From a virus, in the IMG/VR virus record IMGVR_UViG_3300023082_000010, positions 28,421 to 92,420 of that record: 64,000 nucleotides of DNA; one strand, given 5' to 3'. The translations under genes were made by a program, and so were the position numbers. Below are positions 1-55,104 of this stretch, one piece after another. Every line of letters starts with the position of its first letter. Within the stretch, counting starts at the first letter, position 1. The notes beneath the pieces were generated by a model. That model was not told where the DNA came from. It was given only the letters and a program-made list of their open reading frames with translations, and did not search any database.

Positions 1-336
1 GCTTGTTTGGAATACATAAAGAAAGAAGATATCACAAGGCACATCTTGCATAAGAATCTACCTAAAGATTTAGACTGGATTTATTGTGGAACTAAAGCAA
101 CTAACATCTGGGCACATAAAACTATAGCTGTACATGCTTACAATAGGTATGTAAATACAGCTATTAAAGCATATTTACAAGATTATGGTACACCACCAAA
201 TGATGATAAATTTGCGTTGTCTGAGATGGTACAGTGGATATATAGAACACAAATCAGGAATGATAAACCAATATCTTTGTGTATTATGAGTGCTAGAATG
301 AAGAAGCTTTTATGTAATTGGTTAGATAGTAAATAG
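1..336 (+). CDS. C-terminal part (truncated by window edge) of SF2 helicase-like protein; paralog of 52974..54281
   Basis: Frame is open from base 1. TKATN...YNRY...ALSEMVQWIYRTQIRNDKPISLCIMSARMKKLLCNW aligns by eye with TKAVN...YNSY...PLSELLQWIYRSRVRKDEPINLYIPSSRMRGLLQDW. Confidence 0.8.
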   Translation, partial: ACLEYIKKEDITRHILHKNLPKDLDWIYCGTKATNIWAHKTIAVHAYNRYVNTAIKAYLQDYGTPPNDDKFALSEMVQWIYRTQIRNDKPISLCIMSARMKKLLCNWLDSK

Positions 337-364
337 TTAGTGTTTTAGATTTTCAAACAGTGGA

Positions 365-397
365 CCTCTGTAAGCTACGTATTCCGTGGCCTGTAGG
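365..397. repeat. Imperfect palindrome copy A (CCTCTGTAAGCTACG-tattc-CGTGGCCTGTAGG)
   Basis: 19/20 identity to the reverse complement of 54328..54347; shares CCGTGGCCTGTAG with the reverse complement of 39254..39266. Confidence 0.75.
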
Positions 398-438
398 TTT
401 ATATCCTATAATGCTAGAAAGCTTAATTTTAGACACAG

Positions 439-465
439 AAAAGCCCCGACCGTAAGGAAGGGGCT
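439..465 (-). terminator. Rho-independent terminator at the end of the late/lysis operon
   Basis: AGCCCC-N12-GGGGCT followed by TTTC on the minus strand, downstream of 492..1046. Confidence 0.65.
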
Positions 466-491
466 AAAGGTCTTGTATCTGTATATTATTC

Positions 492-1046
492 TTATTGTCT
501 TGCTGTAGTGATAGCACCAAAACTATTGTTATTAATATTAGTGTTTATTACTTTTGTTCCATTCTTTTTATCTTGTTGCAACCCTTCAACTCTTTGTTCT
601 AAAACACTAACTCTTGCACTTAATCTGTTGTCAACAATGTCTAACTTCTCATCAAGTTTGTTGGCCTTACTTTCAAAGTAGGATAAATTCTTGTCGATAA
701 CAGAATCATTATGAGGAAGAGCACTTGCTACTATTTGTGCTGGTGTATTAGCATTAACAATAGGTGCAGGATCTTTCTGATATAGCTCATATAATTTGTC
801 AAGTCTTTGAGCATACAACTGAGCACGGGCCTCTCTCAGTTGCTGATACCTATTAAGATTGTCTTCTACTATTTTAATCTTACCTTCGTAGTTCTTTTTC
901 TCAACATCAAATCTATCTTGCACTTGTCTTTGAAAGTCTTCTAGAGCCGTGTTAGCAGATTGTTTAGTTGTGATTGTAATTATTAAAACTAAAGCTAGGA
1001 CTATAATTATTGCATGTGAGAGTCCCTTCAACACTTTCAAAAACAT
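492..1046 (-). CDS. Membrane-anchored coiled-coil protein (lysis-cassette accessory)
   Basis: N-terminal hydrophobic helix then heptad-rich sequence; AGGAGA SD; last gene of the operon. Confidence 0.6.
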   Translation of the reverse strand: MFLKVLKGLSHAIIIVLALVLIITITTKQSANTALEDFQRQVQDRFDVEKKNYEGKIKIVEDNLNRYQQLREARAQLYAQRLDKLYELYQKDPAPIVNANTPAQIVASALPHNDSVIDKNLSYFESKANKLDEKLDIVDNRLSARVSVLEQRVEGLQQDKKNGTKVINTNINNNSFGAITTARQ

Positions 1047-1082
1047 ATCAATCTCCTACTGCTTATTTTATTTTTAAGGAGA

Positions 1083-1364
1083 CTATTTCTTTTCGTTCTG
1101 AGCCTGCACCAATTTCAGGAGCAAATCGAGTCTTGAACTAAGATCGCTAAACCTAACCTCAATCGACCTTGAAATTCTTTCCTCTAATTGGGTTGCAGAC
1201 TGCTGAGTCATCGCAGTAGCCTGCATCGTATATAAACGTTCTTCTAGGCGATTAATACCATTATAGAAGTATCCTGCCAAAAGAAACAGAAGTGCAATCA
1301 AAGCACTTTTAATACTCTCGTAAGATTTTTCTCTTTGTGCTGCATTAGGATCTGATGTAGGCAT
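1083..1364 (-). CDS. Single-TMD membrane protein (possible holin/antiholin-type)
   Basis: One TMD (SALIALLFLLAGYFY) plus coiled coil; translationally coupled to the upstream o-spanin. Confidence 0.5.
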   Translation of the reverse strand: MPTSDPNAAQREKSYESIKSALIALLFLLAGYFYNGINRLEERLYTMQATAMTQQSATQLEERISRSIEVRFSDLSSRLDLLLKLVQAQNEKK

Positions 1365-1630
1365 TATTTATCCCCAAACCTTTCTGAGTTGATACGCTTC
1401 CATGTTTGGAGCATTTTTAGTTTCTTCTGACAAGCAGCTAAATTTGTAGTCTGTTGAATCCAAGCTGATGTTAGTGTAAGCTTGTCTTTGGAGTCTTTAC
1501 CAGAAATTTCAGGAGGGGGACTAATGACACAATCTGATATTGCCTCATCAGAAGGTAAAATAACTATTGGTTTTTGATAACCACAAGAAGAGATAGACAT
1601 ACAAACAAGGCAGAGGAGTATATATCTCAT
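1364..1630 (-). CDS. o-spanin (Rz1-like lipoprotein) #2
   Basis: Lipobox ISSC, Pro-rich DCVISPPP, C-terminal NLAACQKKL typical of o-spanins. Confidence 0.7.
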   Translation of the reverse strand: MRYILLCLVCMSISSCGYQKPIVILPSDEAISDCVISPPPEISGKDSKDKLTLTSAWIQQTTNLAACQKKLKMLQTWKRINSERFGDK

Positions 1631-2124
1631 TTCTTCACCTTCGGACAGATTTTATCTTCAGGAAAACTTGTGCAAAAACTTGTCTTCATCATAGCCTTAA
1701 GTTCAGCATCAACTGGAACTAATTTTTCAATAGTTTGTGTCTGAGTTTTAGTTATTACTTTTGTCTCAACAACAGGAGTGTTGATTAGAGTGTTTTGTAC
1801 TTTCTCAATCTTATCATTCAAGCGATTACTAATCTTTTCAACTGTAACAGACACGGGAGGTTGTGCAACAGGCAGGTTAGATGAGGGTACTTTATTCAAC
1901 TCTGCTTGAGATTGAAGAATGGAGATTGCACGATCTTTCTCAATACCCGTCATCATAAGCTGTGTGTTAGCTTGCCTCAGGTCCTTATTCTTTTCTGTTT
2001 CCGTGTAAAGCATAACTCCCAGTACGGATACAACCACAATGGTTAGAACACCAAAATAGATGTGTAAGTCATTCTCTATAAACCATGCTTCTGATTTAGC
2101 CAAGAAAGGTTTTATACGGTGCAT
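1627..2124 (-). CDS. i-spanin (Rz-like) #2
   Basis: N-terminal TMD, coiled coil, C-terminal Cys pair; 4-nt overlap with the lipoprotein gene. Confidence 0.55.
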   Translation of the reverse strand: MHRIKPFLAKSEAWFIENDLHIYFGVLTIVVVSVLGVMLYTETEKNKDLRQANTQLMMTGIEKDRAISILQSQAELNKVPSSNLPVAQPPVSVTVEKISNRLNDKIEKVQNTLINTPVVETKVITKTQTQTIEKLVPVDAELKAMMKTSFCTSFPEDKICPKVKK

Positions 2125-2126
2125 GG

Positions 2127-2411
2127 TTATTCCTTCTTTGGTTTGTAAATTCTTTGCTGATCAGCGTCCCATTCAGCTAATTTCTTTAGCCTAATACTAA
2201 ACTCACCAATACACCCTGTATTACTCACATACCCTTGTGCCAAACTAGACAGTGTGTCACCAGCCTCCACAGGCTTACACGGATCACTTAAGAGGTTGAT
2301 TGGGATCGATACATAGACCGGGGATTGATTGACAATAGCTTTCTGAGAGCACGCTACGCAACTCATCACTAAGATAAATATCATCAGAGCTTGCATTATT
2401 TGTTTTAACAT
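2127..2411 (-). CDS. o-spanin (Rz1-like lipoprotein) #1, overlapping i-spanin #1
   Basis: Lipobox (VAC), P..LL.PC motif and second Cys; starts inside 2284..2727 in another frame (overlapped spanin architecture). Confidence 0.75.
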   Translation of the reverse strand: MLKQIMQALMIFILVMSCVACSQKAIVNQSPVYVSIPINLLSDPCKPVEAGDTLSSLAQGYVSNTGCIGEFSIRLKKLAEWDADQQRIYKPKKE

Positions 2412-2727
2412 CTGATGCCTCTTTGTCTTTAGTCAGTCGTGCGAGAGTGTTAATCTTCTTATTCAGTACACTTACTTTGCCTTGCAATACTTCACGCTCT
2501 TTTGAGTCTTCTAAACTCTTAAGAGTGGTTGAAGCTAAGGTAGCACTCAGGTTCTCTTTATCCTTGTTTGCGCTGATTAATTGTGCAGATAAAGCGTCAT
2601 TCTGAGCGGATAAAGCGCCTGTCTCAGCAATAGAATTCTTTAGAAGATATCCTGAAGCAAAAAGAGCAATAACAAGTGCTACAATGAGGTAGTAGGTCCA
2701 AGAGATGCCTGATAGGAAAGACATCAT
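2284..2727 (-). CDS. i-spanin (Rz-like) #1
   Basis: N-terminal TMD, long coiled coil, C-terminal Cys pair; follows the holin. Confidence 0.75.
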   Translation of the reverse strand: MMSFLSGISWTYYLIVALVIALFASGYLLKNSIAETGALSAQNDALSAQLISANKDKENLSATLASTTLKSLEDSKEREVLQGKVSVLNKKINTLARLTKDKEASDVKTNNASSDDIYLSDELRSVLSESYCQSIPGLCIDPNQPLK

Positions 2728-3041
2728 TCTTTAGGCTCTTCTGTTACTGTATACTGCCAAAGCGACTTTTGTTTTATGAAACGTGCAAAAAGTCCCAATG
2801 CGTTAAAAGAAAACATCAAGATTGCGTAGGTTTGTGTGGTCATCGTAGGTTCAAGCAACCCAAGAAACGGCAACAATTGGTCGATGAACGTAAGTATTAC
2901 AGATGAGAGGTGGAGCCAAAATGACCAAGTAAGAAAGATTTGCCTCCAGTTACTGACGACGGAAACCTTTGAAACTTTTTCCTTTACAATCTCTGCGCTT
3001 TGGGGTATAGTCAATTCTGAGGTAGGAGTTTCTTCTGCCAT
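2724..3041 (-). CDS. Holin (two TMDs)
   Basis: NWRQIFLTWSFW motif, 2 TMDs, ARFIKQ basic C-terminus; lies between endolysin and spanins. Confidence 0.7.
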   Translation of the reverse strand: MAEETPTSELTIPQSAEIVKEKVSKVSVVSNWRQIFLTWSFWLHLSSVILTFIDQLLPFLGLLEPTMTTQTYAILMFSFNALGLFARFIKQKSLWQYTVTEEPKE

Positions 3042-3072
3042 AATTTAATATTCTTGATAAAGGTGATATATA

Positions 3073-3680
3073 ATGAAGTTAGTTTATGGTGTGGGTATAA
3101 ATGATGCTGATTACACCCTCAGTAAATATGAAAAATTTGTCAGCGCGGAGGGCTTATTGAAGGTTCGTCAGGTATGGGTTTGTCCTTTTTATTCGAGATG
3201 GCAATCCATGATTACTCGCTGTTACAGTAAGAATTTTCTTATAGAGAATCCATCCTACAAAGATTGTACCGTCTGTGAGGAATGGTTAACTTTTAGTAAA
3301 TTTAAATCTTGGATGGAGACGCAGAATTGGAGTGGTAAGACCCTTGATAAAGATATATTGTGTAAAGGCAATAAAATTTACTCTCCCGAATTTTGTGTTT
3401 TTGTTCATGCCAAAGTAAATCTTTTTATCATTGAACGTGAGAGTAAACGTGGTGAATGGCCTATTGGTGTTCACTTTGAAGAGAGCTACCAAAAGTATAA
3501 ATCCACAATAACTTCTAACAATAAGACTGTAAACTTAGGTAGGTATGATACAGCTGAGCAAGCCCATCAAGCTTGGTTGGACTTTAAGCTTGATGGGCTT
3601 ATATACTAGCTTCAGAGCAAGAAGACGATAGGGTAGCTAAAGCTCTCGTAGAAAGGTACAAAAATTATTCTCGCACATAA
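3073..3680 (+). pseudogene. HNH-type (DKD-variant) homing endonuclease with AP2-like tail; C-terminus frameshifted near 3595
   Basis: W..M..RCY...VCEEW..FSKFKSW...LDKDIL..GNKIYSP..C.FV and NLGRYDTAEQAH. The ORF stops at 3609, but another frame continues AYILASEQEDDRVAKALVERYKNYSRT* to 3680, matching the C-termini of paralogs 45168 (KVVKAL) and 58908 (RVYEAL). Confidence 0.65.
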
Positions 3681-3687
3681 GGCTTTG

Positions 3688-3717
3688 TAAAGCTGTTACA
3701 ACAACATAACAGCTTTA
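3688..3717. terminator. Hairpin between the convergent endonuclease and endolysin genes
   Basis: TAAAGCTGTTA-caacaaca-TAACAGCTTTA followed by a T-run on +. Confidence 0.5.
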
Positions 3718-3733
3718 TTTTAAATCACCAAAA

Positions 3734-4162
3734 TTAAGAGAGAAACAATTCCTTCTCAGCCAACCTGCGTTTAGTCAATCCTGCCAGAACTTTACCACCA
3801 GCTTTATCCCACCTTGGAAACTCAGATGCTGCACCAGTATAATCCAGAGAGTTTAGCTTACGAAGCAAAGTAGAGGATTTGAGATTACCCAGTCCTAAGT
3901 TAAAAGAGAAACTAATCAAAGCAGCATGTTGGTTTTCATTCAAAGGAACTTTAACCAACTCAGCAACACCTTTTTCAAACTTTGCAAGGTCAGATTTTAA
4001 AAGAGTTTCCGCTTGGGATTCAGTAATAACTTGTCCCATATAGACATCAGAGCCAGTGTGTCCATATCCAATAGTCACTACACCAACAGAGTCCTTGTAA
4101 GCTTTTAGCTCAAGTCCCTCAAACTCTTTAATCAGATCAATCCCTTTTTGAGATGTCTTCAT
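3734..4162 (-). CDS. Endolysin, GH24 phage lysozyme
   Basis: E-x8-D-x5-T catalytic motif (EGLELKAYKDSVGVVTIGYGHT), ALISFSFNLG, GLTKRRLAEKELF. Confidence 0.95.
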   Translation of the reverse strand: MKTSQKGIDLIKEFEGLELKAYKDSVGVVTIGYGHTGSDVYMGQVITESQAETLLKSDLAKFEKGVAELVKVPLNENQHAALISFSFNLGLGNLKSSTLLRKLNSLDYTGAASEFPRWDKAGGKVLAGLTKRRLAEKELFLS

Positions 4163-4175
4163 GTTTTATTTCCTC

Positions 4176-4201
4176 AAAAGACATCTGCCCTTACGGGCAG
4201 A
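4176..4201 (-). terminator. Hairpin/terminator between tail fibre and endolysin
   Basis: TCTGCCC-gtaa-GGGCAGA then TGTCTTTTG on minus. Confidence 0.5.
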
Positions 4202-4212
4202 ACATCCCCGTA

Positions 4213-5223: not shown

Positions 5224-5224
5224 G

Positions 5225-26156: not shown

Positions 26157-27560
26157 TCAAAGCCTGAATTCGTTTGTCTTGGTGTAGATGGGAACTGCGA
26201 AGGATGGTACGCTTTTGTTTTGTGCCAAAGTGAGGTAGGCCAAAGAAGCACAGTCTGCCATATCATCGTGGCCCATTTCTCCACTACGTCTCTGTCCATC
26301 AAAAGCTTCAAGTTCCTTGTGAAAGAAATCATTATCCGCTACAATTTTATTCCAAAGATCATTGCAGCAACCTTTCACAATAGAAACAACACCTAGTTCG
26401 GCAGATGCAGCAAAAGGTCTGAAGGAGTCCAGCTTACCTAGTGATGCTCTTTTTGTTTTAACCACATATCCATGTTCAATAATAGAACGAGCTATTAGCA
26501 TAGTAGATGCCTTAGCTGCTGGGTTAGGGTCTTCTCCGAGAATAATTTCTACTTCGGGACCATCCCTTTGAGCACTGTCTAGGATTTGTTTTTCCCAATC
26601 ACCAAATGTTATTCGTGTTCTATAGACATCAAGGATCACATAATTACCATTTCTCAGCTTACCAAGCTTCAATGAGGCGAAGTAATCGGGCGATCTGTTT
26701 CCGTCGTGTGGCAAAGTGCCAGCGAAGTCAAAAACCCGAACTACCTTTGAAAACTCTGAATGGTGGGGTGCTTGAGTCAACACTGGAACAGTATTCCTAT
26801 CGTAATAGGTGCTGTTCTCCGGCTTTGCAAACCAATTCCCATAGAGCAATCGCTCGCGGTCAAGTTTTGGAAGAGATTCCAAATTTGAGCGATATAGTGG
26901 GTTACTTTTCTTCAGTGGGGGGTTATCATCAATAGTGCCAAATAACCCTTGAAAGCTAATTGGCTTTACTTGATCGTCATGTTCGGCTTCTAATTTAGGA
27001 TTTCCGTACTTGTCAATAAGCTCTTGCGCACTTTCACCCCAAACAATATCACCAGCCACTCGGAGCAGATAACGAACTGTGCCATTCTTTTCTGGGTCTG
27101 GGCGGCCAGCTAGTGCATGGCCCTCTGGATATAAATACCATTGTGCGTACTTTAGAAGCCAGCTTGAATTGTCAGGATTGCATGACATGACAATTCCGTG
27201 GACATTCTTCGCCTCAGACCTAAGCCGCGACCAAAGCCACCAAATATCTTCTTCCTCCGCGTGAGTTGCCTCATCATAAAAGATATTTGAAATTTGAATA
27301 CCTTGATATTTCTTAGCTGCGTTAGCATTCTCATAGTGCGAGAAGCTAATCTCTGCACCACTAGAAAATACTAATTTTTGATCTTTCAATCGAATTTTAA
27401 GACTAGGATCATACTGACTATATAGTTTAACTGCTTCCTGAAACAGACCACCAGAAGCCATAATCGCACTGGAGTTCTTACGAATACAATAAGCCTTATA
27501 GTTTGGATCTTCTACGAAACGAAGATGCCGCATTAACCCAACATAACTTTTGGAACTACC
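26157..27560 (-). CDS. terL: Terminase large subunit, exon 2
   Basis: Begins GSSKSY (second half of Walker A); FYDEATH Walker B, SCNPD motif III, FDFAG and HDDMAD nuclease motifs. Confidence 0.95.
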   Translation of the reverse strand, partial: GSSKSYVGLMRHLRFVEDPNYKAYCIRKNSSAIMASGGLFQEAVKLYSQYDPSLKIRLKDQKLVFSSGAEISFSHYENANAAKKYQGIQISNIFYDEATHAEEEDIWWLWSRLRSEAKNVHGIVMSCNPDNSSWLLKYAQWYLYPEGHALAGRPDPEKNGTVRYLLRVAGDIVWGESAQELIDKYGNPKLEAEHDDQVKPISFQGLFGTIDDNPPLKKSNPLYRSNLESLPKLDRERLLYGNWFAKPENSTYYDRNTVPVLTQAPHHSEFSKVVRVFDFAGTLPHDGNRSPDYFASLKLGKLRNGNYVILDVYRTRITFGDWEKQILDSAQRDGPEVEIILGEDPNPAAKASTMLIARSIIEHGYVVKTKRASLGKLDSFRPFAASAELGVVSIVKGCCNDLWNKIVADNDFFHKELEAFDGQRRSGEMGHDDMADCASLAYLTLAQNKSVPSFAVPIYTKTNEFRL

Positions 27561-27790
27561 CAATAAATTCTAAGGTTCGTTAAACCTTCTCACATTTCTA
27601 TGAGGATCGGACTATATCACCTGTTATTTCTAACAGCCCCCCGTTTCGATTGCACTTGCAACCTACTCTGCTACACTCATCACAGATAGTCTCTGAACGT
27701 TACTTATTTCTAAGTCTTCGCTGCTGATTACCTTTAACTTAATAGTAAGGGTTCCAGCAATTAGAGGGGTTTAAAGCGGCCCGTAGTTCA
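27561..27790 (-). ncRNA. Group I self-splicing intron (230 nt, ORF-less, IA2-like) in terL
   Basis: Exon 1 ends in U and the intron ends in G. P1 GCGGCU/GGCCGC has the U.G at the splice site; P10 GAACUAC/GUAGUUC pairs with exon 2. Core elements AAUUGCUGGAA, AAUCAGCAG, UUCAGAGACUA, GAUAUAGUCC. Splicing restores GGAA|GSSKS in frame. Confidence 0.93.
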
Positions 27791-27880
27791 AGCCGCCCCT
27801 CCAACTAGGAGGATTTGAGCATCTGAGAGCAGGTATTGCGATTGGAACCTGCTCTGAGCTGAGATAACAGTTTCTGTCAT
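27791..27880 (-). CDS. terL: Terminase large subunit, exon 1 (MTETVISAQSRFQSQYLLSDAQILLVGGAA)
   Basis: 30 codons with the Q-motif region and first half of Walker A; its ATG overlaps the TGA of the upstream endonuclease (ATGA). Confidence 0.9.
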
Positions 27881-28614
27881 ACTTGCACCAGTTTAATCCT
27901 TTTAGTTCTTGGAGTTTTTGAGGCTGCTGATTTGTTTTCAAACTCAGTAGCGAAAATACAAGCTTCTCTAGAATAAACTTTATTACCTTCAAATTTAAGA
28001 TCTTTGTCTAAATTATAAGGGCTTGTACCGAGCTGTTTAGCTTCCAACCAAGAATCAAAATTATCTAAACTGGAGATGTCTGAAAGAAAGTTAGCAAAAC
28101 AATGCCACCTCGTATCTACGAAACATTTGCCAAAATACCCATGAGCATCTTTAGGATTATAACAACGCTTCATCATATTTGACCAAAGCTGCTTAGCTTG
28201 TTTCCAATAAGGCAGAAGCTCATACTCTCCTAAATAACCAATCCCAAGAAAGGTTTTGCTATAAGGATCGGATATTTTACCCATCCGTACATTATCAATG
28301 TGTACTTCTGCTGTGTAGCCTGTATCATAGAATTGAACTACGCACTTCTTGGACTTCTTACTAATAATTTTTCCACTGTATCCAGCATTATTAGTAAACT
28401 CTTCGTCCCAAGGTTGCCAGTCGTGAGCTGTACATTTTGGTACGCTAAAGTCTCTAACCTTACCAGCAAGTACATTGCCAGCGTCAGCTGTTGTTTCATA
28501 ACCTGTAGTAACAAATCTTAAATGTAGTTTTCGGCCATCTCGACCAATAACTTCCATAATTCCGTAGCCATTCGACTCGTAAAACTGATCATAAATTTTT
28601 CTTACATTAGCCAT
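27877..28614 (-). CDS. Free-standing HNH-type (DKD-variant) endonuclease with two N-terminal repeats
   Basis: WSNMMKRCY, RWHCFANF, LDKDL..GNKVYSREACIFAT..N; duplicated (S/T)N.YG...V.F..TGY.......G.(V/I).D unit. Confidence 0.75.
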   Translation of the reverse strand: MANVRKIYDQFYESNGYGIMEVIGRDGRKLHLRFVTTGYETTADAGNVLAGKVRDFSVPKCTAHDWQPWDEEFTNNAGYSGKIISKKSKKCVVQFYDTGYTAEVHIDNVRMGKISDPYSKTFLGIGYLGEYELLPYWKQAKQLWSNMMKRCYNPKDAHGYFGKCFVDTRWHCFANFLSDISSLDNFDSWLEAKQLGTSPYNLDKDLKFEGNKVYSREACIFATEFENKSAASKTPRTKRIKLVQV

Positions 28615-28653
28615 GTGAATTCTCCCATGCTAGTTAGTTAGATTTTAAACTTC

Positions 28654-28998
28654 TTATTTCTTCTCAAAACTTTCTTCATACTGTCGAATAAGCTGTGCTC
28701 TGTCGCGACCACTAATGCCACGTTCTTTACAGACAGCTTTCAACTTATCCCATTCAAATTCTTCAAGCTGCTCTTTACTATACTGCAACTCAACAGGATA
28801 CACCCGAACACCATTCACCATGTCATCTTCAAGAAACTCTTCAGTTTCAACGTTCAGCATGACTTTATTCGGAAAGGTATTTTTGGTTGGATAACTGCTG
28901 TCAATCGTAGCACCGAGGTTAGCGAACCGTACCACATTCTCAAGAAATTTAATCCCTGAGCTATCTGTTGCTTTAAGCTCTACTTTATAAGTATTCAC
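28654..28998 (-). CDS. Conserved phage protein with C-terminal HeH/Rho-N-like helix pair
   Basis: YSKEQLEEFEWDKLKAVCKERGISGRDRAQLI. Confidence 0.55.
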   Translation of the reverse strand: MNTYKVELKATDSSGIKFLENVVRFANLGATIDSSYPTKNTFPNKVMLNVETEEFLEDDMVNGVRVYPVELQYSKEQLEEFEWDKLKAVCKERGISGRDRAQLIRQYEESFEKK

Positions 28999-35802: not shown

Positions 35803-35879
35803 TGGTGGGTCCATCCAGACTTGAACTGGAAATCAACGAATTATGAGTTCGCTGCATTAACCAATTATGCTACAGACCC
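35803..35879 (-). tRNA. tRNA with CAU anticodon (Ile2-lysidine or elongator Met)
   Basis: Full cloverleaf GGGTCTG...GCGAA-CTCATAA-TTCGT...TCCAG-TTCAAGT-CTGGA-TGGACCC-A-CCA with encoded CCA. Confidence 0.92.
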
Positions 35880-37542: not shown

Positions 37543-37808
37543 TCTAAAGCTTTAAGTAGTACATCACCGTGACATGCTTGTGGTTTACAGAAACAACCTA
37601 AAACAGCGCCATTCAGTTCATGTAAAGATTCTTTAGTAACTTCCCCAGATTTGATTTGTTCCCAAAGATGGAGTCTATACTTCTCAATAACTTCTTCTCG
37701 AGTGCCATCTTTACCAATGCTGAAAGGGTTGCCCCATTTAGAACCACGACCAATATAGATGTCATAGTCCTCTTTGTATTTGTTAACTACTCTTGTATTA
37801 GGATTCAC
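37527..37808 (-). CDS. DUF4326 domain protein
   Basis: YIGRGSKWGNPF...LGCFCKPQACHGDVL. Confidence 0.85.
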   Translation of the reverse strand: MNPNTRVVNKYKEDYDIYIGRGSKWGNPFSIGKDGTREEVIEKYRLHLWEQIKSGEVTKESLHELNGAVLGCFCKPQACHGDVLLKALEWSLK

Positions 37809-39163
37809 TTCTTATCCACCTTGCAAAATGTGGTATCTCCTAATACTGTTTTCCATGCTGTGAACATGGCCTCTCTCAAATCATCTTCTGCTGATTCCTT
37901 AACCAGCACACTATCATGATAAGACAATACGGCATGACCTTTCTCACCCATTGCACCAACAATGTTCATCATAATCTTACTGTCAATATTTTGAAGCATG
38001 ATACCACCATCGTTAAAGAACATGTCGCGAATAAAGTCATTATGACTCCTTACAGCTTCTAGCACCTTACCATAATCTGTCTTACCAACTAGGGCATAAA
38101 ATTCTTGATCTTCAACCTCCTTCTCTCGATCAAGCTTCACCTTGTTACCAAGTGTCCAAGCTGCACTATTCATATCATCAGAGTTCATACCAATGAGAAT
38201 TCCAAGCTTTGCTAGTGAACGCCTTGGGTTATGCTTTTTACCTGTCAAGTTTTCCCATTGTTCTTTTAGCTTCTCATCCACTTTAACAAATGATAAGTCA
38301 GCATCATAAGGGGAGAACTCACTCCCCATTACATCATAAATACTAAAGCCATCATTGTTATACATCTGTTGGTAGCAGATACTTGGGTGAATAGCTGAGT
38401 AGTCTAGCTCCACTACAGCTTCACCATCAATTCGCAAGGACGAAGCCCTGATGTGTTGTGGAAGAAGCTGAACTCCACCACCAAGCGTGTAAAGTCTGCC
38501 GCCTTTATCCAAATCACCACTGAAGATACGACGATATGCAACATCTGCAATTGGCTTGCCATCAAATGTGATATCTGCACCTTCCAAACTGTTATTCATG
38601 TTCCTCACCTCAGATTTGATATCTTTAAAGCCCTTGTGACCACGGGTGGACATTAATTGTTTTGTCTCACGATTGCGTATAATAGCAAGATCACTTTCTT
38701 CAAGATCCCGCCATAGATTGTAAGACACATCCACCCCTTCCCACATATCTAGTGTTCGCTTACGAAAGATTAGGCATGAGGGGACAACAACATCAGGTTT
38801 TGGTTTACCTTTGATTGTCTTCCAAGATTTAACATACCCTTTGTAAAGATCAATATAACCTTTCTGCTCAAGGAAATCAACTAATGATTTAACCTTCCTG
38901 TATCCAATACCCTGAACAGAGGCAGTATAGCTATTCTTATCCAAGCTAAATACAAATCCATTAGCTTTATGTTTGATAGCACGAGCACTATTGCTGATCC
39001 ACCACCTGACTGCTTCTTCCCATCTTTCTTCTGTATGGTCTAGTACCTGATCTACTATCTTCTTATAGTATTTAGATTCATGATAATAAATATAACTTCG
39101 TACACATCTTAGATTAATAGAATACACTTCTGATTCTTTCATCTTACTTAATTCATAAATCAA
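37805..39163 (-). CDS. wHTH + family-A-polymerase-like palm protein of unknown function
   Basis: N-terminal GYRKVKSLVDFLEQKGYI; RRIF..GGRLY..Q; motif A-like ELDYSAIHP, motif B-like R..AK, LQNIDS, motif C-like YHDS; AGGAGG SD. Confidence 0.65.
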   Translation of the reverse strand: MIYELSKMKESEVYSINLRCVRSYIYYHESKYYKKIVDQVLDHTEERWEEAVRWWISNSARAIKHKANGFVFSLDKNSYTASVQGIGYRKVKSLVDFLEQKGYIDLYKGYVKSWKTIKGKPKPDVVVPSCLIFRKRTLDMWEGVDVSYNLWRDLEESDLAIIRNRETKQLMSTRGHKGFKDIKSEVRNMNNSLEGADITFDGKPIADVAYRRIFSGDLDKGGRLYTLGGGVQLLPQHIRASSLRIDGEAVVELDYSAIHPSICYQQMYNNDGFSIYDVMGSEFSPYDADLSFVKVDEKLKEQWENLTGKKHNPRRSLAKLGILIGMNSDDMNSAAWTLGNKVKLDREKEVEDQEFYALVGKTDYGKVLEAVRSHNDFIRDMFFNDGGIMLQNIDSKIMMNIVGAMGEKGHAVLSYHDSVLVKESAEDDLREAMFTAWKTVLGDTTFCKVDKK

Positions 39164-39253
39164 TTACTCTCCTCCTTCTTGGTGTATGTGTGTGTAGTAG
39201 TAATAGAATGATAGATAAGTACTAGATACATGTATTCCAGTACACAAACTAAG

Positions 39254-39282
39254 CTACAGGCCACGGTTTATATAGGTTTGTA
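39254..39282. repeat. Imperfect palindrome copy C upstream of the polymerase-like gene
   Basis: CTACAGGCCACGG is the exact reverse complement of the right arm of copy A (384..396). Confidence 0.6.
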
Positions 39283-39343
39283 CCCCTTGCTACTCGGTAC
39301 TTTCTCTAAAGTAGACATTACTACCCTCCCAAAGATAAGACAC

Positions 39344-39371
39344 AGAATACCACGCTTTCTCCCCACGTCAA
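39344..39371 (-). promoter_or_regulatory. Leftward sigma70 promoter (divergent pair)
   Basis: TTGACG-16-TATTCT with TG extended -10. Confidence 0.6.
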
Positions 39372-48629: not shown

Positions 48630-48630
48630 G

Positions 48631-49714: not shown

Positions 49715-49799
49715 AAGTAGCCTGTAGATGGTACTTTTGGTAAAGTAGCCCCTGAAGGCTACAGTGTACTAGAAAGTCAGATTATAGGAGAAAGTATAA

Positions 49800-50366: not shown

Positions 50367-50846
50367 GTGATTATTGACTGGAGTAAATCTAAAGATGCAT
50401 CTCAATACTACATTGAGCACATCACCAATGATTTGGCGTATAATAGTGATCGTGATGGATTTTATAAATTGACAGACTACGCTTTTTATAGTGAAAAGGG
50501 AAGTTGGATAAAAGGTAAAGATCATGTGTTTAATAATCTAGGTGTTTTATATAATATATATTCCAAACCTAAAGAAACAAAGCCTCTAGATTATCACACA
50601 AGGATGTGTCCGTACTCAAATATCGAAACTAAAAAAGATAATCTAGTTTCGATGGGAATGCGAACAGAAAAATTAGAACTTACCCCTCTCGCCCGATTTT
50701 TAGAAGTACATTTGTCTGGGGATATCTACGAGATAGATAAAAGATACGTTGAAAAAGGTTTCTATTTTAAACTTGATGGTGAAGTGTTTGAGTATTCAGC
50801 TGTAGATCTTCGTAATATCTTTCGTAAACATGAGGAAAACAAATAA
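50367..50846 (+). CDS. Hypothetical protein
   Basis: AAGGAG SD. Confidence 0.55.
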   Translation: MIIDWSKSKDASQYYIEHITNDLAYNSDRDGFYKLTDYAFYSEKGSWIKGKDHVFNNLGVLYNIYSKPKETKPLDYHTRMCPYSNIETKKDNLVSMGMRTEKLELTPLARFLEVHLSGDIYEIDKRYVEKGFYFKLDGEVFEYSAVDLRNIFRKHEENK

Positions 50847-51037
50847 TGGAACTGCGTACAGAAGTTAAATGCTTCACTGTAAAAATGATGTGTGATGAAT
50901 GTTTCTCAGGCGAGATGCTTTCCACAGGTTTGGTGCTGACAAGCTATCCTGCCTTGTACAAACATAAGTGTACATTGTGTAGTCATAAAGGTAACTATTA
51001 TAGTGTTTATCCTAAAGTGGAGTATTCAGAATGTTGA
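50846..51037 (+). CDS. Zn-ribbon protein
   Basis: CDEC..GEM...YP..YKHKCTLC. Confidence 0.6.
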   Translation: MELRTEVKCFTVKMMCDECFSGEMLSTGLVLTSYPALYKHKCTLCSHKGNYYSVYPKVEYSEC

Positions 51038-51264
51038 AAACACGTCGTATCAAAGGAGAGCTTGCTTTTTACGAATCAACTACTGGGGTCACTCTGAACA
51101 GCATTAAGAGTGTTGCATTTACCGGATACCCCGAAATCATTGTTACTGTTGTGTATAAAGATGGAGTGCCACACGTATTTCTGCCCTTCAGAGATGGCAA
51201 TCCCCTAGTTTCATTGCAGACAGCTATTGAACGAATGGATTTGATTATTACGAAGGTGGCTTGA
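51031..51264 (+). CDS. Hypothetical protein
   Basis: GGAG SD, coupled. Confidence 0.5.
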   Translation: MLKTRRIKGELAFYESTTGVTLNSIKSVAFTGYPEIIVTVVYKDGVPHVFLPFRDGNPLVSLQTAIERMDLIITKVA

Positions 51265-51265
51265 T

Positions 51266-51490
51266 ATGTGGGAGCTAATTCACATCGCAGGATGTGGTGG
51301 AGTGTGCTACAGACGAAGTAGTCAGCCAGAGCTGCATACAAAGCTTGATGAGAAAGATAGTTTTAATCTTGATGGAACTCCTGTAGAGAGAAATCAAGCT
51401 GTTATATGTCAGTCTTGTGGTGAGGTTCTTAAAGTTTATAATCCTTACAATGAGGTTCATCCTAGTAAATGGAGACATGTTGATGACTAG
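51266..51490 (+). CDS. Zn-binding hypothetical protein
   Basis: H..GCG...CQSCG. Confidence 0.5.
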   Translation: MWELIHIAGCGGVCYRRSSQPELHTKLDEKDSFNLDGTPVERNQAVICQSCGEVLKVYNPYNEVHPSKWRHVDD

Positions 51491-51704
51491 AGAACAGTTC
51501 ATTAAAAAGTTCTTTAATGTAGAGGGATTTAATGAATCCTCAGAAATGTGGAAAGGAATCTCTAGAGCTTCTTCTATTTTCGGTATTGAATATGCTTTAA
51601 TAGGGGCTGTGTATGACCTTCAACAGCAGATTACACAGAAAGATGAGTTCATTGATTATCTAGATCAGAGATTGATTAATCTGGAACAGGAGGTTTATAA
51701 ATGA
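51417..51704 (+). CDS. Hypothetical protein (true start probably near 51480)
   Basis: C-terminal coiled coil; coupled. Confidence 0.5.
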   Translation: MVRFLKFIILTMRFILVNGDMLMTREQFIKKFFNVEGFNESSEMWKGISRASSIFGIEYALIGAVYDLQQQITQKDEFIDYLDQRLINLEQEVYK

Positions 51705-51982
51705 TTTATCCTAAACACATCTATCGTGATTTTGAGATTATAGAAAAAGAGATTTGTGGAGAGAGGCACTTTGCTATTGTGGAGACCAAAACCTTTCTGT
51801 TCTTTTGGGAACGTAAGTGCCATGTCTATTTAGGTAGTTTTTCCTTCAACGGGTGGGCTGGTTATGAATCCTCAAAAGGTTGGGGTGATATCTGGCACAA
51901 ATATAGCTACACATGTGAGTCTGCTATCAAAGCAATGAACGAGCAAAGCGAATATAGATTTAAAAGGAAAGTGTTAAATTGA
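51701..51982 (+). CDS. Hypothetical protein
   Basis: AGGAGG SD. Confidence 0.55.
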   Translation: MIYPKHIYRDFEIIEKEICGERHFAIVETKTFLFFWERKCHVYLGSFSFNGWAGYESSKGWGDIWHKYSYTCESAIKAMNEQSEYRFKRKVLN

Positions 51983-52197
51983 GCACACGAGTTTGTGAAT
52001 TCTGCAAAGACTGGACACCAGAATACCTAGAAGAATTCTACACAAAAGACTTAATTACTGGAGGCATCTTTGATGCCGCATTTCCAGTGTGTGGGGCGTG
52101 TGAGGGGACTAGGGAATTGGATAGTAGGGCTTGTTTCTGTCACGCTTGGGATGAGACAGAATGTGGGTGTAATGCTGATTGGAGTGATGAGGGATGA
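51979..52197 (+). CDS. Cys-rich hypothetical protein
   Basis: Multiple CxxC/CxC motifs. Confidence 0.5.
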   Translation: MSTRVCEFCKDWTPEYLEEFYTKDLITGGIFDAAFPVCGACEGTRELDSRACFCHAWDETECGCNADWSDEG

Positions 52198-52784
52198 ATA
52201 ATCTAAGTGTAAATGAACACAAGAGTGAAAGTTATGCACCAAGGACATATCACAACGCTTCCCAAGGTTGTACATTAGCTGTAGCTGTGGACTTCAACAC
52301 AGCAGGAGAACGTCTTACACATAAAGCTGCCAAGGATAAGATTGTGCAGATTGCTTGGGGAACAGACGTTATTACAACAGCACGTAAACTATATTCATTG
52401 CTTAAGAAATATGATTGTCATGTTGTGAATGTTGCAGGTAATGGAATCTATACACTAGTGAAGAAAGGGGTAGACCAGAAGACAGCTAATAAATTTGTTT
52501 ATGATGTACTAAAGCTTGTGAATACACATTGGCCTATTACAAAGGTTGTCAGTGGAGGTCAGACAGGGATGGATATGGCAGGATTGGTTACTGGACTTGC
52601 TTTAGGAATTGAAACAGAAGCTATGTATCCCAAAGGATTTCTGATGCGATTAGTTGATGGGAAAGATACTTACATGTGGAAGCTAGATATGCAACAAGCT
52701 GAGATGGAAATTTGTTCTAAATGGGCCTACCGTATTTATAGGAGTGTTCAGAAGGTGCTTGATAGAGGAGATGAATTGGTGTGA
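52194..52784 (+). CDS. SLOG-superfamily protein (circularly permuted YpsA-like)
   Basis: YAPRT.HNA, VNVAGNG, VVSGGQTGMDMAGL, PKGF. Confidence 0.7.
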   Translation: MNNLSVNEHKSESYAPRTYHNASQGCTLAVAVDFNTAGERLTHKAAKDKIVQIAWGTDVITTARKLYSLLKKYDCHVVNVAGNGIYTLVKKGVDQKTANKFVYDVLKLVNTHWPITKVVSGGQTGMDMAGLVTGLALGIETEAMYPKGFLMRLVDGKDTYMWKLDMQQAEMEICSKWAYRIYRSVQKVLDRGDELV

Positions 52785-52981
52785 CAGATATTAAAGAGCA
52801 GGCTGAAAGCCTTAGAAAACAAGGACTGACACCACAAGAACAAATTCTACAAAACTGGGCGAATGAGTTTGTAGATATTTATGGTAAAGAGCCTTCTCAA
52901 GATACAATAAATTATTGGAAGCTTCAGATAAATGCACTACACTGGACAGACTATGACACTGAAGAGGATTTAGATGACTAA
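52781..52981 (+). CDS. Hypothetical protein
   Basis: Coupled ORF. Confidence 0.5.
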   Translation: MTDIKEQAESLRKQGLTPQEQILQNWANEFVDIYGKEPSQDTINYWKLQINALHWTDYDTEEDLDD

Positions 52982-54281
52982 AGTAATCGTGTACGATGAA
53001 CTTCCCGGAACGGGTAAGTCATGGAGAATGATTGACAAGATTAATAACTCTGACAAAGATCGGAGATTTATTGTTGTTACTCCTTTTCTAGCAGAGTGTC
53101 ACAGGTACGCTGGCACAGTACTTGACAAAGATAGTGGAGATAAACAACTCCCTAGTAAAGATGACCATGGGAATATAATCTATGATGGTACTGGCTGTAG
53201 TGCGTCTGGTCGTAGATTTGAACACCCTATCTCTGGATACAAAACAAAGGTAGAGCATATTGCAAAGCTTGTCCATGAGGGGAAGGATATAGTAACAACC
53301 CATGCCGCGCTTAAGCTCTTTACACCCGAGACAGTTAAGGATGTAAAGGATGCGGGTTACACTCTTGTAATTGATGAGGAGCTTGAATGTATCAGACCAC
53401 ATCCTTGCAAGATGCACAGAAGGAAGATGCTACTAGGCTCTAATGTTATTTATGAGGATGAGTTAGGACTTCTACGTTGGAACGAAGACTACCCAATTGA
53501 TGACATCAAAGACCTAGATAGCTCGGGCTTTAGCTGGGACATGCAGATCAAAGCTTTGTGTGATAATGGTAGTCTTGTACTGATTGCAGATGAGAAAGGT
53601 AATCGTGATTTATTCATGTGGGAATATCCTATTGAGTTTATCAAAGCATTTGACAAGGTTGAAGTGCTAACCTACTTGTTTAAAGGATCTATGTTTGAGA
53701 AATATCTAGACTTCTACGGTATTCCGCATGAAACAAAGTTAGGCATCCAAATGCAATCTAACATCTTTGATTTGATTAACATCATTGACAATCCAAAGAT
53801 GAATCGTATTGGTGATCGAGAAACTGCCTTCTCAGTAAGTGACCAGAAGAGGTATGCAAAAGACAGTGCTACTGCTGTTACAGTGAAAGCCAATCTCGGT
53901 AACTACTTTAGGAACAGTACGTATGGTAAGTCAAACACAGAGGACAGGTTGTGGACTTGTTTAGGAGAAGCCTTTAGCACATTCAAAGGTGCTGGATATA
54001 CTAAGTGTCACATTGCCCATAATACTAAAGCTGTGAATGATTATATGGAAACAAGTCAGCTAGCCTATATCTACAACTCTTACATCCATCCCGAACCTTA
54101 CAAATATCTGCTAGATAGAGGTACAGAGTTTGCACCAGATCAGAATAGATATCCACTGAGCGAGCTTTTACAATGGATCTATAGAAGTAGAGTTAGGAAA
54201 GACGAACCTATAAACCTGTATATTCCCAGCAGTCGTATGAGAGGGTTACTCCAAGACTGGATGAGTGGAAATATGACTTAG
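52974..54281 (+). CDS. SF2 helicase-like protein (DEAD/DEAH-like N-terminus)
   Basis: Walker A PGTGKS, motif Ia VVTPFLAE, TTHA, Walker B LVIDEE, LTYLF, C-terminal SELLQWIYRSRVR. Confidence 0.75.
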   Translation: MTKVIVYDELPGTGKSWRMIDKINNSDKDRRFIVVTPFLAECHRYAGTVLDKDSGDKQLPSKDDHGNIIYDGTGCSASGRRFEHPISGYKTKVEHIAKLVHEGKDIVTTHAALKLFTPETVKDVKDAGYTLVIDEELECIRPHPCKMHRRKMLLGSNVIYEDELGLLRWNEDYPIDDIKDLDSSGFSWDMQIKALCDNGSLVLIADEKGNRDLFMWEYPIEFIKAFDKVEVLTYLFKGSMFEKYLDFYGIPHETKLGIQMQSNIFDLINIIDNPKMNRIGDRETAFSVSDQKRYAKDSATAVTVKANLGNYFRNSTYGKSNTEDRLWTCLGEAFSTFKGAGYTKCHIAHNTKAVNDYMETSQLAYIYNSYIHPEPYKYLLDRGTEFAPDQNRYPLSELLQWIYRSRVRKDEPINLYIPSSRMRGLLQDWMSGNMT

Positions 54282-54313
54282 TATTTATTTCTGTTTAAAA
54301 GTACTAAAATTAG

Positions 54314-54347
54314 ACCTCAGCCCTTGTAATACGTGGCTTACAGAGGT
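54314..54347. repeat. Imperfect palindrome copy B downstream of the helicase-like gene
   Basis: Reverse complement ACCTCTGTAAGCCACGTATTACAAGGGCTGAGGT matches copy A. Confidence 0.75.
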
Positions 54348-55104
54348 GTTGCCCTAAAGGAAGTAGGTATAGAAATATGTTTTAAGTAAGAGCAAAAGCA
54401 TTATTTTCTTATTTATCTCTTACTTCTATCCTTACTTTTAAGGGTGTTTCTAGGTGTAAAATATCAACCATTTTATATTTTGGGAGTCAGCTTGTATCAG
54501 TGACTCTTTACTTTTCTGTGTCCAAATATCCTTGAAAGCCTTATGTATTAAGGTGTCTATTCAATTCCCCTATAAACCAGATCTCTAGTAGACCGTCTTA
54601 ACGCACCAACACAGTGCACAAATATACCCTTATGCGATTATAAAATATTTGAAGAGAATAATCCAATTGATTGTCACTATAGCTTTGACCAGATCAATAG
54701 ATACTATTCAATACACCCTCACATACCTTGGCCTAAGACTTGCCTTGCTTATACTGTGCCAAGTAGTGTAAAGATAGTAATAAGTAATACTGATCCGTAG
54801 CATAACGTAACAGTGGTCGTAAGGTGGCATATGTTAAATGTTACCCGATAGGTATTACTCATTGACCTATCTGACAGACAGCCTTGACAACACCCTACAG
54901 TCTATGCTCTATAGCCACTGTGTATACTATTAGACGTACGTTAGTACACACCTATCAATACTGCATATGTAATGAATAAAAGCTATATGATAAGGGAATT
55001 GTTGACAAGGAATGGTTAGTATGGAGTGGAATGAGGGTGGTACAGGGAGGGATTCGTGCCTGTGCTTAATCTTTCGATTAATCCCAACCACCCACACAGA
55101 CGCC

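Follow-up and report, generated by a model that had tools for sequence, protein, structure and literature searches.

A conserved hairpin element accompanies YonV-family helicase-like and phrog_4756 polymerase-like genes across phage genomes

Introduction

The YonV family (PF27199) and phrog_4756 are widespread phage protein families without a known role. In the window analysed here, a 64,000-nucleotide stretch of a 92,420-bp phage genome, similar imperfect palindromes lie beside members of both, which raises the question of whether these palindromes constitute one specific element and what such an element might do. The original prediction held that a single palindrome is present only next to these DNA-transaction genes and that, together with an easily melted, strand-biased tract, it represents an origin-like or end-like cis site. 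Its first part is supported by the comparisons presented below, in which the palindrome emerges as a cis element specifically associated with the polymerase-like gene and the helicase-like paralogs; as to the second part, nothing computed shows an origin or an end. The best explanation of the data is that the palindrome forms an intrastrand hairpin and is passed on together with every copy of the two gene families as a single unit. No published description of this palindrome was found. The features under discussion are listed in Table 1.

Table 1. Positions of the element copies, adjoining genes and neighbouring signals (window coordinates unless stated otherwise)
Feature	Position	Strand	Remarks
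YonV-family helicase-like paralog 1, 3' part	1..336	+	phrog_2467, E 2e-62; weak DEAD match
Copy A of the hairpin element	364..398	+	nhmmer E 5e-6
GC hairpin with GTAA loop, then T-run (context)	440..470	-	kept in G005, G006
phrog_4756, stand-alone family-A polymerase-like protein, 452 aa	37805..39163	-	motifs A/B/C; model pLDDT 91
Copy C	39240..39283	-	nhmmer E 0.23 alone; position kept in at least 15 loci
Predicted sigma-70-type promoter, TTGACG-16-TATTCT with TG	39344..39371	-	consensus scan only; kept in G006
YonV-family helicase-like paralog 2, 435 aa	52974..54281	+	Walker A GTGKS, DEE box, motif VI YRSRVR
Upstream box AAAAGTACTAAAAT	54297..54310	+	kept before the element in paralog-2 orthologues
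Copy B of the hairpin element	54314..54347	+	nhmmer E 2e-11
Downstream box GCCCTAAAGGAAG	54351..54363	+	conserved in paralog-2 and paralog-1 type copies
Hairpin GAGTCA..TGACTC, then TTTACTTTTC (context)	54477..54515	+	kept in G001, G002
Copy D of the original prediction	54534..54557	+	small hairpin
Copy E	genome 5432-5469, outside the window		beside third helicase paralog (paralog 3)

The Two Gene Families

The whole gene of YonV paralog 1 spans genome positions 27518-28756 and encodes 412 aa; its atlas clusters carry PF27199 YonV_C. A 20-sequence YonV alignment leaves G12, G14, K15, S16, D134, E135, R404 and R408 invariant, and the structure model of paralog 2 (pLDDT 82) displays a two-RecA SF2 fold, with CasDinG, XPD and DinG as the best PDB matches (probability 1.0, TM ~0.5). 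As had been claimed for the paralogs, and as far as motifs and modelled structure can tell, the YonV proteins belong to the SF2 helicase superfamily with an XPD/DinG-like fold, their unwinding activity being only predicted.

The phrog_4756 protein contains motif A (VELDYSAIHP), motif B (R..AK) and motif C (YHDS), and 29 sequences of the family all have D254, K319, H416 and D417. The listed top PDB matches of its model are all family-A DNA polymerases (Pol I, T7 DNA polymerase; probability 1.0), at a global TM of just ~0.3. As to a 3'-5' exonuclease or another N-terminal editing domain, the protein measures only 452 aa and Pfam found no domain in it; its N-terminal part is winged-helix-like by the secondary structure of the model. 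The model points to a family-A DNA polymerase fold with motifs A, B and C, in agreement with the earlier description of the gene as PolA-like. This family occurs in 242 cultured phage records, including ICP1.

Copies of the Palindrome in the Phage Genome

Copies A, B and C form one family of ~35-bp imperfect palindromes. A and B have the 20-mer ACCTCTGTAAGCYACGTATT in common (19/20 identical, as reported earlier), and at up to 3 mismatches they are its sole matches both in the window, where 0.01 would be expected, and in the whole 92,420-bp genome. They begin 28 nt (A) and 33 nt (B) after the stop codon of the respective helicase-like gene, close to the ~30 bp originally noted. Copy A reads ACCTCTGTAAGC-TACG-TATTC-CGTG-GCCTGTAGGT, with the left arm intact and the right arm decayed, and its reverse complement is identical to the element at locus L067 in 32 of 35 positions. 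Copy B has kept its right arm, CGTGGCTTACAGAGGT, while its left arm has decayed. The shared arms do stand in opposite orientation, as had been claimed, but this appearance results from unequal arm decay of one near-perfect ancestral palindrome, of which A retained the left arm and B the right.

Copy C is centred on the core CCGTGGCCTGTAG (39254-39266, minus strand), an exact 13-mer in common with A, placed within the inverted repeat GTACAAAC...GTTTGTGTAC ~95 nt 5' of the phrog_4756 start. Taken alone, this 13-mer match is borderline; C is nevertheless a genuine copy, because the same element lies 69-126 nt before the start codon in orthologues and paralogues of the adjoining gene (in G001, G002, G004, G005, G006 and at least 15 further loci). 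The predicted sharing of an arm between A and C was thus settled by comparison across loci. The statement that there is no other copy is correct for the A/B 20-mer in the window, but copy E accompanies a third YonV paralog elsewhere in the genome. In total, four copies are found in 92 kb, all of them beside YonV or phrog_4756 genes.

Specificity and Conservation across Phages

Eight complete related phage genomes (712 kb in total), containing 11 YonV and 10 phrog_4756 genes (21 genes), were searched with a profile (nhmmer). The 15 best matches all fall within ~160 nt of a gene of one of these families, with no orphan copy among them. The seven relatives resemble this phage in that copies accompany YonV or phrog_4756 genes only, and three second phrog_4756 paralogs were first noticed through the adjoining element match. 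A scatter of the motif over many unrelated intergenic sites, looked for in the eight genomes, is absent there, and homologous genes in other genomes do carry the palindrome. In Bacillus phage SPbeta, for instance, the element follows yonV. Its distance from YonV stop codons is 42-94 nt across loci. In the outer arms, CACCTCTRYA / TRYAGAGGTG, it is the sequence that is conserved, and these arms are kept across ~30%-identical paralogs and across host phyla. Chance similarity is excluded as the source of the shared element.

Gene plus element is a unit conserved between mosaic genomes. This phage (G000) is 86% identical to G004 over paralog 3 and copy E only, 90% identical to G001 over paralog 2 and 273 bp, and 88% identical to G006 over phrog_4756 and its leader; the flanks of all three blocks are largely unalignable at this level.

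Hairpin Structure

Base pairing was assessed in an alignment without gaps, for which AGRGG served as the anchor and the structure was not used as a guide. Paired cells amount to 72.7% against 69.7% in shuffles (14 of 500 shuffles as high), cells changed on both sides number 32 against 20.8 (4 of 500 as high), and the true register outscores every slid register; the sequences behind these values are related, and no signal was obtained from a previous alignment whose register was poorer. Apical pairs alternate between CG, UA and AU, with pairs 21-31 and 22-30 switching between CG and UA, while in the main stem G.U (28) outnumbers A.C (16). Since the apical stem co-varies, intrastrand pairing is indicated. 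From these patterns, the element appears to be a structured nucleic-acid hairpin, as RNA or single-stranded DNA, whose pairs are kept by compensatory changes.

Among 17 non-redundant copies linked to phrog_4756, 13 fold better as sense-strand RNA, whereas YonV-linked copies have no strand preference (7 vs. 6). Rfam 15, at the gathering score, matched nothing in the window except a group I intron and tRNA; a search of the surroundings of A and B at a limit of E 10 gave only chance-level snoRNA matches in L001 and none in L002, none of them overlapping the elements.

Flanking Signals and Composition

The boxes around copy B have counterparts elsewhere: phrog_4756 copies are preceded by a related box, AAAGTAC..TAGAAT, and the downstream box together with AGAGG could form a small second hairpin. 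There is no TTGACA-17-TATAAT-type site within or abutting A, B or C; a separate promoter is predicted 60 nt upstream of C, and -10-like boxes near the elements stand 11-15 nt from TTGACA-like hexamers, as read from the sequences. If the promoter in front of C is real, this copy would lie in the 5' leader of the phrog_4756 mRNA. Phage vB_PsaM_M1 has an equivalent layout, with a TTGACA-17-TAGAAT promoter upstream of the element.

The flanking DNA is ~70% A+T, compared with 59% overall, and ~20% of same-size windows are equally G-poor, so that, statistically, the proposed easily melted, strand-biased tract does not stand out. The elements have no iterons or repeat arrays, only two-copy short direct repeats. 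GC-skew turns, suggested as a sign of an origin, coincide with changes in transcription direction. The sequence is present in a single DNA run, stored as contigs.

Two neighbouring hairpins are likely terminators, judging from their sequences: that at 440..470 would end the converging late/lysis block, and that at 54477..54515, read from the sequence and missed by the strict terminator scan, would serve as the plus-strand terminator of the early block. The same scan gave no site at A or B.

Possible Functions of the Element

Whatever its function, the element is the first concrete handle on both families, now joined by one conserved cis element: a sequence of 35-60 nt for work on binding, cleavage, priming or regulation. 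Tractable carriers include SPbeta (Bacillus subtilis), Pseudomonas phage vB_PsaM_M1, Psychrobacter phage D'Alembert, and Vibrio and Edwardsiella phages.

The reading favoured here, albeit tentatively, is that of a gene-attached regulatory stem-loop. The element would be part of each gene's own expression unit, located in the 5' leader for phrog_4756 and paralog-3 type YonV genes and just past the stop codon for the paralog-1 and paralog-2 types. Its conserved arms may be read by one common factor, candidates being one of the two enzymes, by an action on its own mRNA, an RNase III-type activity of the host, or the anti-Shine–Dalgarno end of the ribosome, which the AGAGGTG arm matches. Processing, stability or read-through could then set the dose of both enzymes. 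This would amount to a small conserved post-transcriptional regulon across phages of distant host phyla. Specificity, fixed positions, the leader location, covariation, sense folding of phrog_4756 copies and the conserved gene-element unit all speak for regulation. Such a part also predicts one-to-one adjacency with near-identical sites, and strict adjacency of one gene and one element fits it at least as well as an origin. Several observations point the other way. Orientation relative to YonV genes is mixed (~20 sense, 9 antisense, including the asymmetric flank in L060/L136), and the YonV copies lack a folding preference. In ET-ABTNL-9, VH-8 and D'Alembert, the element is upstream of the YonV promoter, outside the leader. 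Moreover, a regular U-tract is missing, only 3 of 47 YonV loci below 35% identity have an element that the model detects, and it is not obvious why an expression signal should be restricted to helicase-like and polymerase-like families.

The RNase III hairpins of phage T7 early genes and lambda sib retroregulation, which set mRNA stability or translation, offer a parallel to a regulatory stem-loop. They are similar in hairpin size, internal loops, leader or post-stop sites and a sequence common to the copies. However, T7 sites separate most early genes, whereas the present element tags particular families and its cleavage is putative; mixed orientation at YonV genes is also unexpected for an RNA-only signal.

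The idea first proposed, of an origin-like or loading site, is possible but rather unlikely. The polymerase-like protein and/or the YonV helicase would engage the genome at the hairpin, extruded from duplex or single-stranded, for example in origin-specific priming and unwinding, and each gene would stay beside its site as a transferable initiator-site module. In its favour, the enzymes of both linked families act on nucleic acids and have their catalytic motifs intact, the linked element may lie before or after the gene and point either way, as with initiator-origin pairs, covariation comes without a consistent strand bias at YonV copies, and gene and element form a mosaic unit. A phage-encoded RNA polymerase is absent among the proteins scanned. 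An initiation site would reveal how replication begins in Felix-O1-like phages. A further lead, and only that, comes from ICP1, where gp100, a distant phrog_4756 homologue, is at ~53-55 kb and a theta origin peak was mapped 'near the 60 kb position' (PMC7145576).

Against an origin stand the missing iterons, the unremarkable AT-rich flank, the skew turns that track transcription, and the sense-strand folding bias of phrog_4756 copies. Four near-identical sites in 92 kb, with no orphans in 712 kb, are not what an origin of shared specificity predicts. SPbeta, G003 and G007 have YonV and the element without phrog_4756, and the phage already encodes a separate canonical primase-helicase and replicative DNA polymerase. 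Known initiator-linked origins include phage P4 alpha/ori, plasmid ColE2 Rep/ori and the multiple orc/cdc6-adjacent origins of archaea. The element resembles them as a cis site beside the gene of a candidate acting enzyme, with several pairs per genome in a transferable module, but it has no iterons or demonstrable unwinding element, and pairwise specificity is lacking, as sites of different paralogs are nearly identical.

A more specific proposal, which must be called doubtful, is that two enzymes of a hitherto undescribed system enter the DNA at the hairpin as their common site, with the minimal family-A polymerase starting synthesis there and the YonV helicase opening the hairpin. If true, phages without their own RNA polymerase (Ounavirinae-like ones and, for YonV, also SPbeta) would possess one or several self-contained, transferable modules for replication initiation or repair priming, and the N-terminus of the polymerase would be DNA-binding. 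The promoters of the phage N4 virion RNA polymerase, with 5-7-bp stems and 3-nt loops, are comparable as DNA hairpins that have conserved bases next to them and are recognised by a right-hand (Pol I/T7-like) polymerase, a reader that is putative here. They require a giant virion RNA polymerase, a gene absent among the proteins scanned; in addition, the loops of the element measure 5-8 nt, and the phrog_4756 fold best matches DNA polymerases.

A recombination or mobility cassette, meaning a small insertable or deletable unit or a PeSL-like boundary that promotes the shuffling, duplication and exchange of these genes between phages, with regulation being secondary, is improbable. Copy number and position do vary between close relatives (1-3 YonV and 0-2 phrog_4756 genes), different paralog types occupy the same junction in G000, G005 and G006, and homology blocks stop at the element. 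A comparison of L033 and L072 with the other orthologues of paralog 2 reveals a clean presence or absence of the palindrome between conserved boxes. PeSLs of T4-type phages provide the precedent for cassettes driving modular shuffling; each unites a strong sigma-70 promoter and an effective terminator, and they adjoin numerous unrelated small ORFs within hyperplastic regions (Arbiol et al. 2010; PMC2839356). The element likewise is a short conserved intergenic stem-loop, repeated per genome, at the edges of exchanged segments. Yet it carries neither a joined sigma-70 promoter nor a regular U-tract, and its four copies adjoin two enzyme families only, so it is not a PeSL cassette. No target-site duplications were seen, and the sequence itself would have to be under selection to be conserved as far as SPbeta.

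Ordinary intrinsic terminators, or chance similarity left by an old gene duplication, are very improbable and largely refuted by the strict scan, arm conservation and profile specificity: A and B do sit where the genome map has its two convergent junctions, G003 has a classical minus-strand terminator with a T6 tail at the equivalent position, and the SPbeta copy is annotated as a stem-loop and is flanked by A and T runs, but C is upstream of its gene, terminator stems are not constrained in sequence as these arms are, and the lack of a regular U-tract argues against a standard terminator. T-rich tails are confined to paralog-2 type copies (minus strand) and SPbeta, while both strands lack a T-run in the copies of L143 and L146, which are preceded by a separate terminator.

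The small hairpin D, proposed as a degenerate copy, does not score as a family member in the profile search and is not supported as one. It is kept in G001 and G002, and it marks the end of the 90%-identical block common to this phage and G001.

Distribution of the element

In eight complete related genomes, this one included, the imperfect palindrome of about 35 bp is a companion of two gene families, the helicase-like YonV genes and the polymerase-like gene phrog_4756. A first profile, built from YonV-linked copies and run over these genomes (712 kb), returned nine matches at E <0.001, none of them farther than ~100 nt from a YonV gene, of which there are 11. Since copy C precedes the polymerase-like gene, the regions upstream of phrog_4756 orthologues were inspected as well. 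An element-like sequence was present ~90-110 nt before the start in five relatives (G001, G002, G004, G005 and G006), and the YonV-trained profile matched at least 15 of 34 further phrog_4756 loci at 69-126 nt before the start. When the profile was retrained with phrog_4756-linked copies added, the 15 best matches (E <=0.23) all stood beside YonV or phrog_4756, in agreement with the original description of a site confined to these genes. Three matches that appeared to be orphans proved to precede, by ~75 nt, second phrog_4756 paralogs that had not been recognised before. Two diverged paralogs occur in each of G001, G002, G005 and G006, each with its own upstream element, and no phrog_4756 was detectable by tblastn in G003 and G007. 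Because only ~1% of the DNA is so close to the 21 YonV and phrog_4756 genes, the matches outside the training set exclude chance.

The element is also found at more distant YonV loci (28-32% identity) and in cultured phages, namely at L091, L060/L136 and L126 and in D'Alembert, VH-8 and ET-ABTNL-9. In Bacillus phage SPbeta, the sequence GAAACCCTTGGTACATAAGGGTTTTATAGGGGT after yonV, annotated as a stem-loop, is this element. Its detectability drops with YonV distance: a clear copy was recognised at 15 of the 24 YonV genes that share 50% identity or more, and at only 3 of 47 below 35%.

Coordinates of the element copies and of features in their genomic surroundings
Feature	Coordinates	Strand	Remark
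Copy A	window 364-398		beside YonV paralog 1
Copy B	window 54314-54347		after YonV paralog 2
Copy C	window 39240-39283		upstream of phrog_4756
Proposed copy D	window 54534-54557		
Copy E	genome 5432-5469		beside YonV paralog 3, outside window
YonV paralog 1, 3' part	window 1-336		
YonV paralog 2	window 52974-54281		
YonV paralog 3	genome 4141-5379		outside window
phrog_4756 gene	window 37805-39163	-	
Region after paralog 2	window 54282-54930		~650 bp without long ORF
Terminator-like stem	window 54477-54515		
Mini-ORF ATG TTT TAA	window 54375-54383	+	just after B
ORF of about 15-16 codons	window 39197-39247	-	ends inside C
Group I intron	window 27588-27800	-	Rfam RF00028, 76.6 bits
Large-terminase ORF	window 26157-27563		phrog_979
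ORF on the other side of the intron	window 27877-28614		
tRNA-Met (CAT)	window 35803-35879	-	between phrog_4756 block and structural genes
HNH homing-endonuclease-like gene	window 58908-59795	-	phrog_953
HNH homing-endonuclease-like gene	L004:878-1942	+	phrog_953
Plus block	genome 8995-28756	+	primase-helicase, replicative polymerase, ribonucleotide reductase
Minus block	genome 67583-28912	-	terminase, portal, tail, lysis genes
Plus block	genome 67650-82701	+	small early genes, PhoH, protease
Minus block spanning record ends	genome 8843 to 83350	-	
Terminal repeat	window 63875-64000		126 bases, repeat of genome 6-131

Sequence and structure of the element

With <=3 mismatches allowed, the 20-mer ACCTCTGTAAGCYACGTATT, reported earlier as common to A (plus strand) and B (minus strand), has just these two matches, whether the window or the complete genome is scanned, against a chance expectation of 0.01, and the 13-mer of A, CCGTGGCCTGTAG, was recovered exactly at C. 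A scan of IMG/VR for the exact 20-mer gave no match because the loop differs in relatives. The copy B region found no informative DNA match among cultured phages (megablast, blastn), and intergenic word counts revealed no abundant shared promoter-like word containing the element. Folding energies of single copies are unremarkable; the case for the element therefore rests on cross-genome comparison.

Regions downstream of paralog-2 orthologues can be aligned across at least 20 loci (protein identity 57-98%), in the order AAAAGTNCTAAAAT, palindrome, GTTGCCCTAAAGGAAG. Intact palindromes are kept at L066-L068, for example ACCTACAGGCCACG-GAATA-CGTGGCTTACAGAGGT. Once reverse-complemented, copy A agrees with the palindrome of L067 at 32 of 35 positions, whereas the left arm of copy B has decayed. 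Paralog-1 orthologues carry the element too, with the right arm better preserved in L143, L144 and L146 and the left arm in L145, as in A. At paralog 3 (copy E) and its orthologue it lies 65-74 nt upstream of the start. The full consensus is a near-perfect palindrome, CACCTCTRYA-stem-loop-stem-TRYAGAGGTG. The mutual inversion of A and B that was first described, although their 3' flanks are on the same side, is explained by this symmetry. Two parts of that description are not supported: copy D does not score as a family member, and the composition of the AT-rich flanks is not unusual. Compared with other paralog-2 orthologues, L033 and L072 (~60% identity) show a precise presence/absence difference, in which the boxes CTAAAAT and GCCCCTTAGAAGG stand 6 nt apart and the palindrome is absent.

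Aligned without gaps on the invariant AGRGG, 29 copies show pairing in 72.7% of the cells of an 8-bp stem plus a second one of 3 bp, and no slid register does as well as the true one. Two-sided changes number 32, compared with 20.8 in shuffles, a value reached by 4 of 500 shuffles, and the two loop-adjacent pairs switch between CG and UA. The proportion of paired cells, the register and the two-sided changes together argue for intrastrand pairing, as RNA or as single-stranded or cruciform DNA, over a plain duplex operator. This covariation signal belongs to the anchored alignment only; on an alignment of poor register, RNAalifold and a first pair count gave neither a consensus hairpin nor covariation. 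Evidence on the strand is weak and split: G.U outnumbers A.C by 28 to 16, and sense RNA is the better-folding strand for 13 of 17 phrog_4756-linked copies, but YonV-linked ones split 7 to 6. The orientation of the element relative to YonV genes is mixed.

High-identity alignable blocks between the otherwise mosaic genomes comprise gene plus element: phrog_4756 with its leader (88% identity to G006), paralog 3 with E (86%, G004), paralog 1 with A (76%, G005), and paralog 2 with the next 273 bp (90%, G001, against ~65-80% for other alignable stretches). Gene numbers vary among relatives (YonV 1-3, phrog_4756 0-2), the same junction holds different paralog types, and in an empty-site comparison the neighbours of paralogs 1 and 3 are not conserved in G001-G003.

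The two protein families

The three helicase-like paralogs belong to phrog_2467, named YonV in the atlas clusters, with PF27199 YonV_C. Walker A, the DEE box and motif VI are invariant in an alignment of 20 orthologues, and the best structural matches of the AlphaFold model (pLDDT 82) are CasDinG, XPD and DinG. The gene first labelled wHTH/PolA-like is phrog_4756. All 29 sequences compared share its motifs A (VELDYSAIHP), B (R..AK) and C (YHDS) unchanged, and the top matches listed for its model (pLDDT 91) are family-A DNA polymerases only. Among cultured phages, 242 records have a homologue, those of Rheinheimera, Vibrio (with ICP1) and Aeromonas among them, and 2-3 copies are frequent. One distant homologue is the hypothetical protein gp100 of ICP1 (L210; 555 aa, 21% identity, E 2e-14), for which no role was found in the ICP1 papers examined. 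D'Alembert DAL_90, a replication initiation/DnaD-like protein encoded upstream of the YonV gene, is not a homologue of phrog_4756.

PDB sequence searches matched neither protein; Pfam yielded no more than a DEAD match below threshold, at paralog 1, and NCBIfam none for the two proteins scanned. Complex prediction for YonV paralog 2 and phrog_4756 scored below threshold. No functional study of YonV was found, and the literature searched held no described function for either family and no description of the element. A search for conserved stem-loops in Ounavirinae, to which Pseudomonas phage vB_PsaM_M1, distantly related and likewise carrying the polymerase-like gene, is assigned, also returned none.

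Possible functions

The leading, still tentative, reading is that the element is a stem-loop within each gene's own expression unit. It is suggested by the strict one-to-one adjacency of near-identical sites without orphans, by the fixed distances to start or stop codons, and, at phrog_4756, by a location after a predicted promoter and ahead of the ribosome-binding site, as well as by the bias there towards the sense strand. The conserved arm AGAGGTG is a perfect Shine-Dalgarno core, and CACCTCT, the arm opposite, resembles the 3' end of 16S rRNA; read from the sequence, this likeness may be significant.

Somewhat less probable is the original proposal of an origin-like or loading site for both enzymes. 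It would best account for the tagging of precisely these two families, one helicase-like and one polymerase-like, and for the variable orientation and side of the element. Its lone lead comes from ICP1, whose theta origin peak 'near 60 kb' (PMC7145576) is several kilobases away from gp100.

An unlikely third candidate is a cassette for recombination or mobility.

The remaining candidates fail: a standard terminator (no regular U-tract; neither A nor B passes the strict scan), a PeSL in the sense of PMC2839356 (the element includes no promoter and is not spread over many ORFs), an iteron-type origin (no iterons found), and CRISPR-repeat mimicry or a ribozyme (no similarity, no Rfam match). The element matches no Rfam family.

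Genomic surroundings

The record is 92,420 bp long, with the window at bases 28421-92420, and graded complete by CheckV. A leaf-litter metagenome, the one DNA run listed for it, may be its source, and no RNA run is listed. IMG/VR classes it as 'linear', and its terminal repeat identifies it as a circularly closed assembly. A crude ORF map divides the genome into four transcription blocks; A and B mark the two convergent junctions and C a divergent one. GC-skew turns coincide with changes of transcription direction and thus carry no independent replication information.

The region after paralog 2 might encode a small RNA; its several hairpins include a 9-bp AAGTAAGAG/CTCTTACTT stem and a terminator-like one. 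A long-range 9-bp stem around B was dropped, as it is not conserved in G001. The mini-ORF after B is preceded by AAAGGAAG..AGGT. In L068, L032 and L031 the element is likewise followed by mini-ORFs, with 1-5 sense codons, which recall the bar minigenes of lambda; they are missing in L030, L064 and L066, so a conserved small ORF was rejected. The ORF running into C (MSTLEKVPSSKGYKPI) has a strong GGGAGGG ribosome-binding site; a leader peptide there is probably not conserved, as the 96%-identical G006 has no ATG at that position.

The group I intron lies directly upstream of the large-terminase ORF, and a single tRNA gene was found. The HNH-like gene of L004 carries a fused N-terminus that is nucleoside 2-deoxyribosyltransferase-like (DUF1937). 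An endonuclease-like gene overlaps the YonV 3' end in ET-ABTNL-9, VH-8 and D'Alembert.
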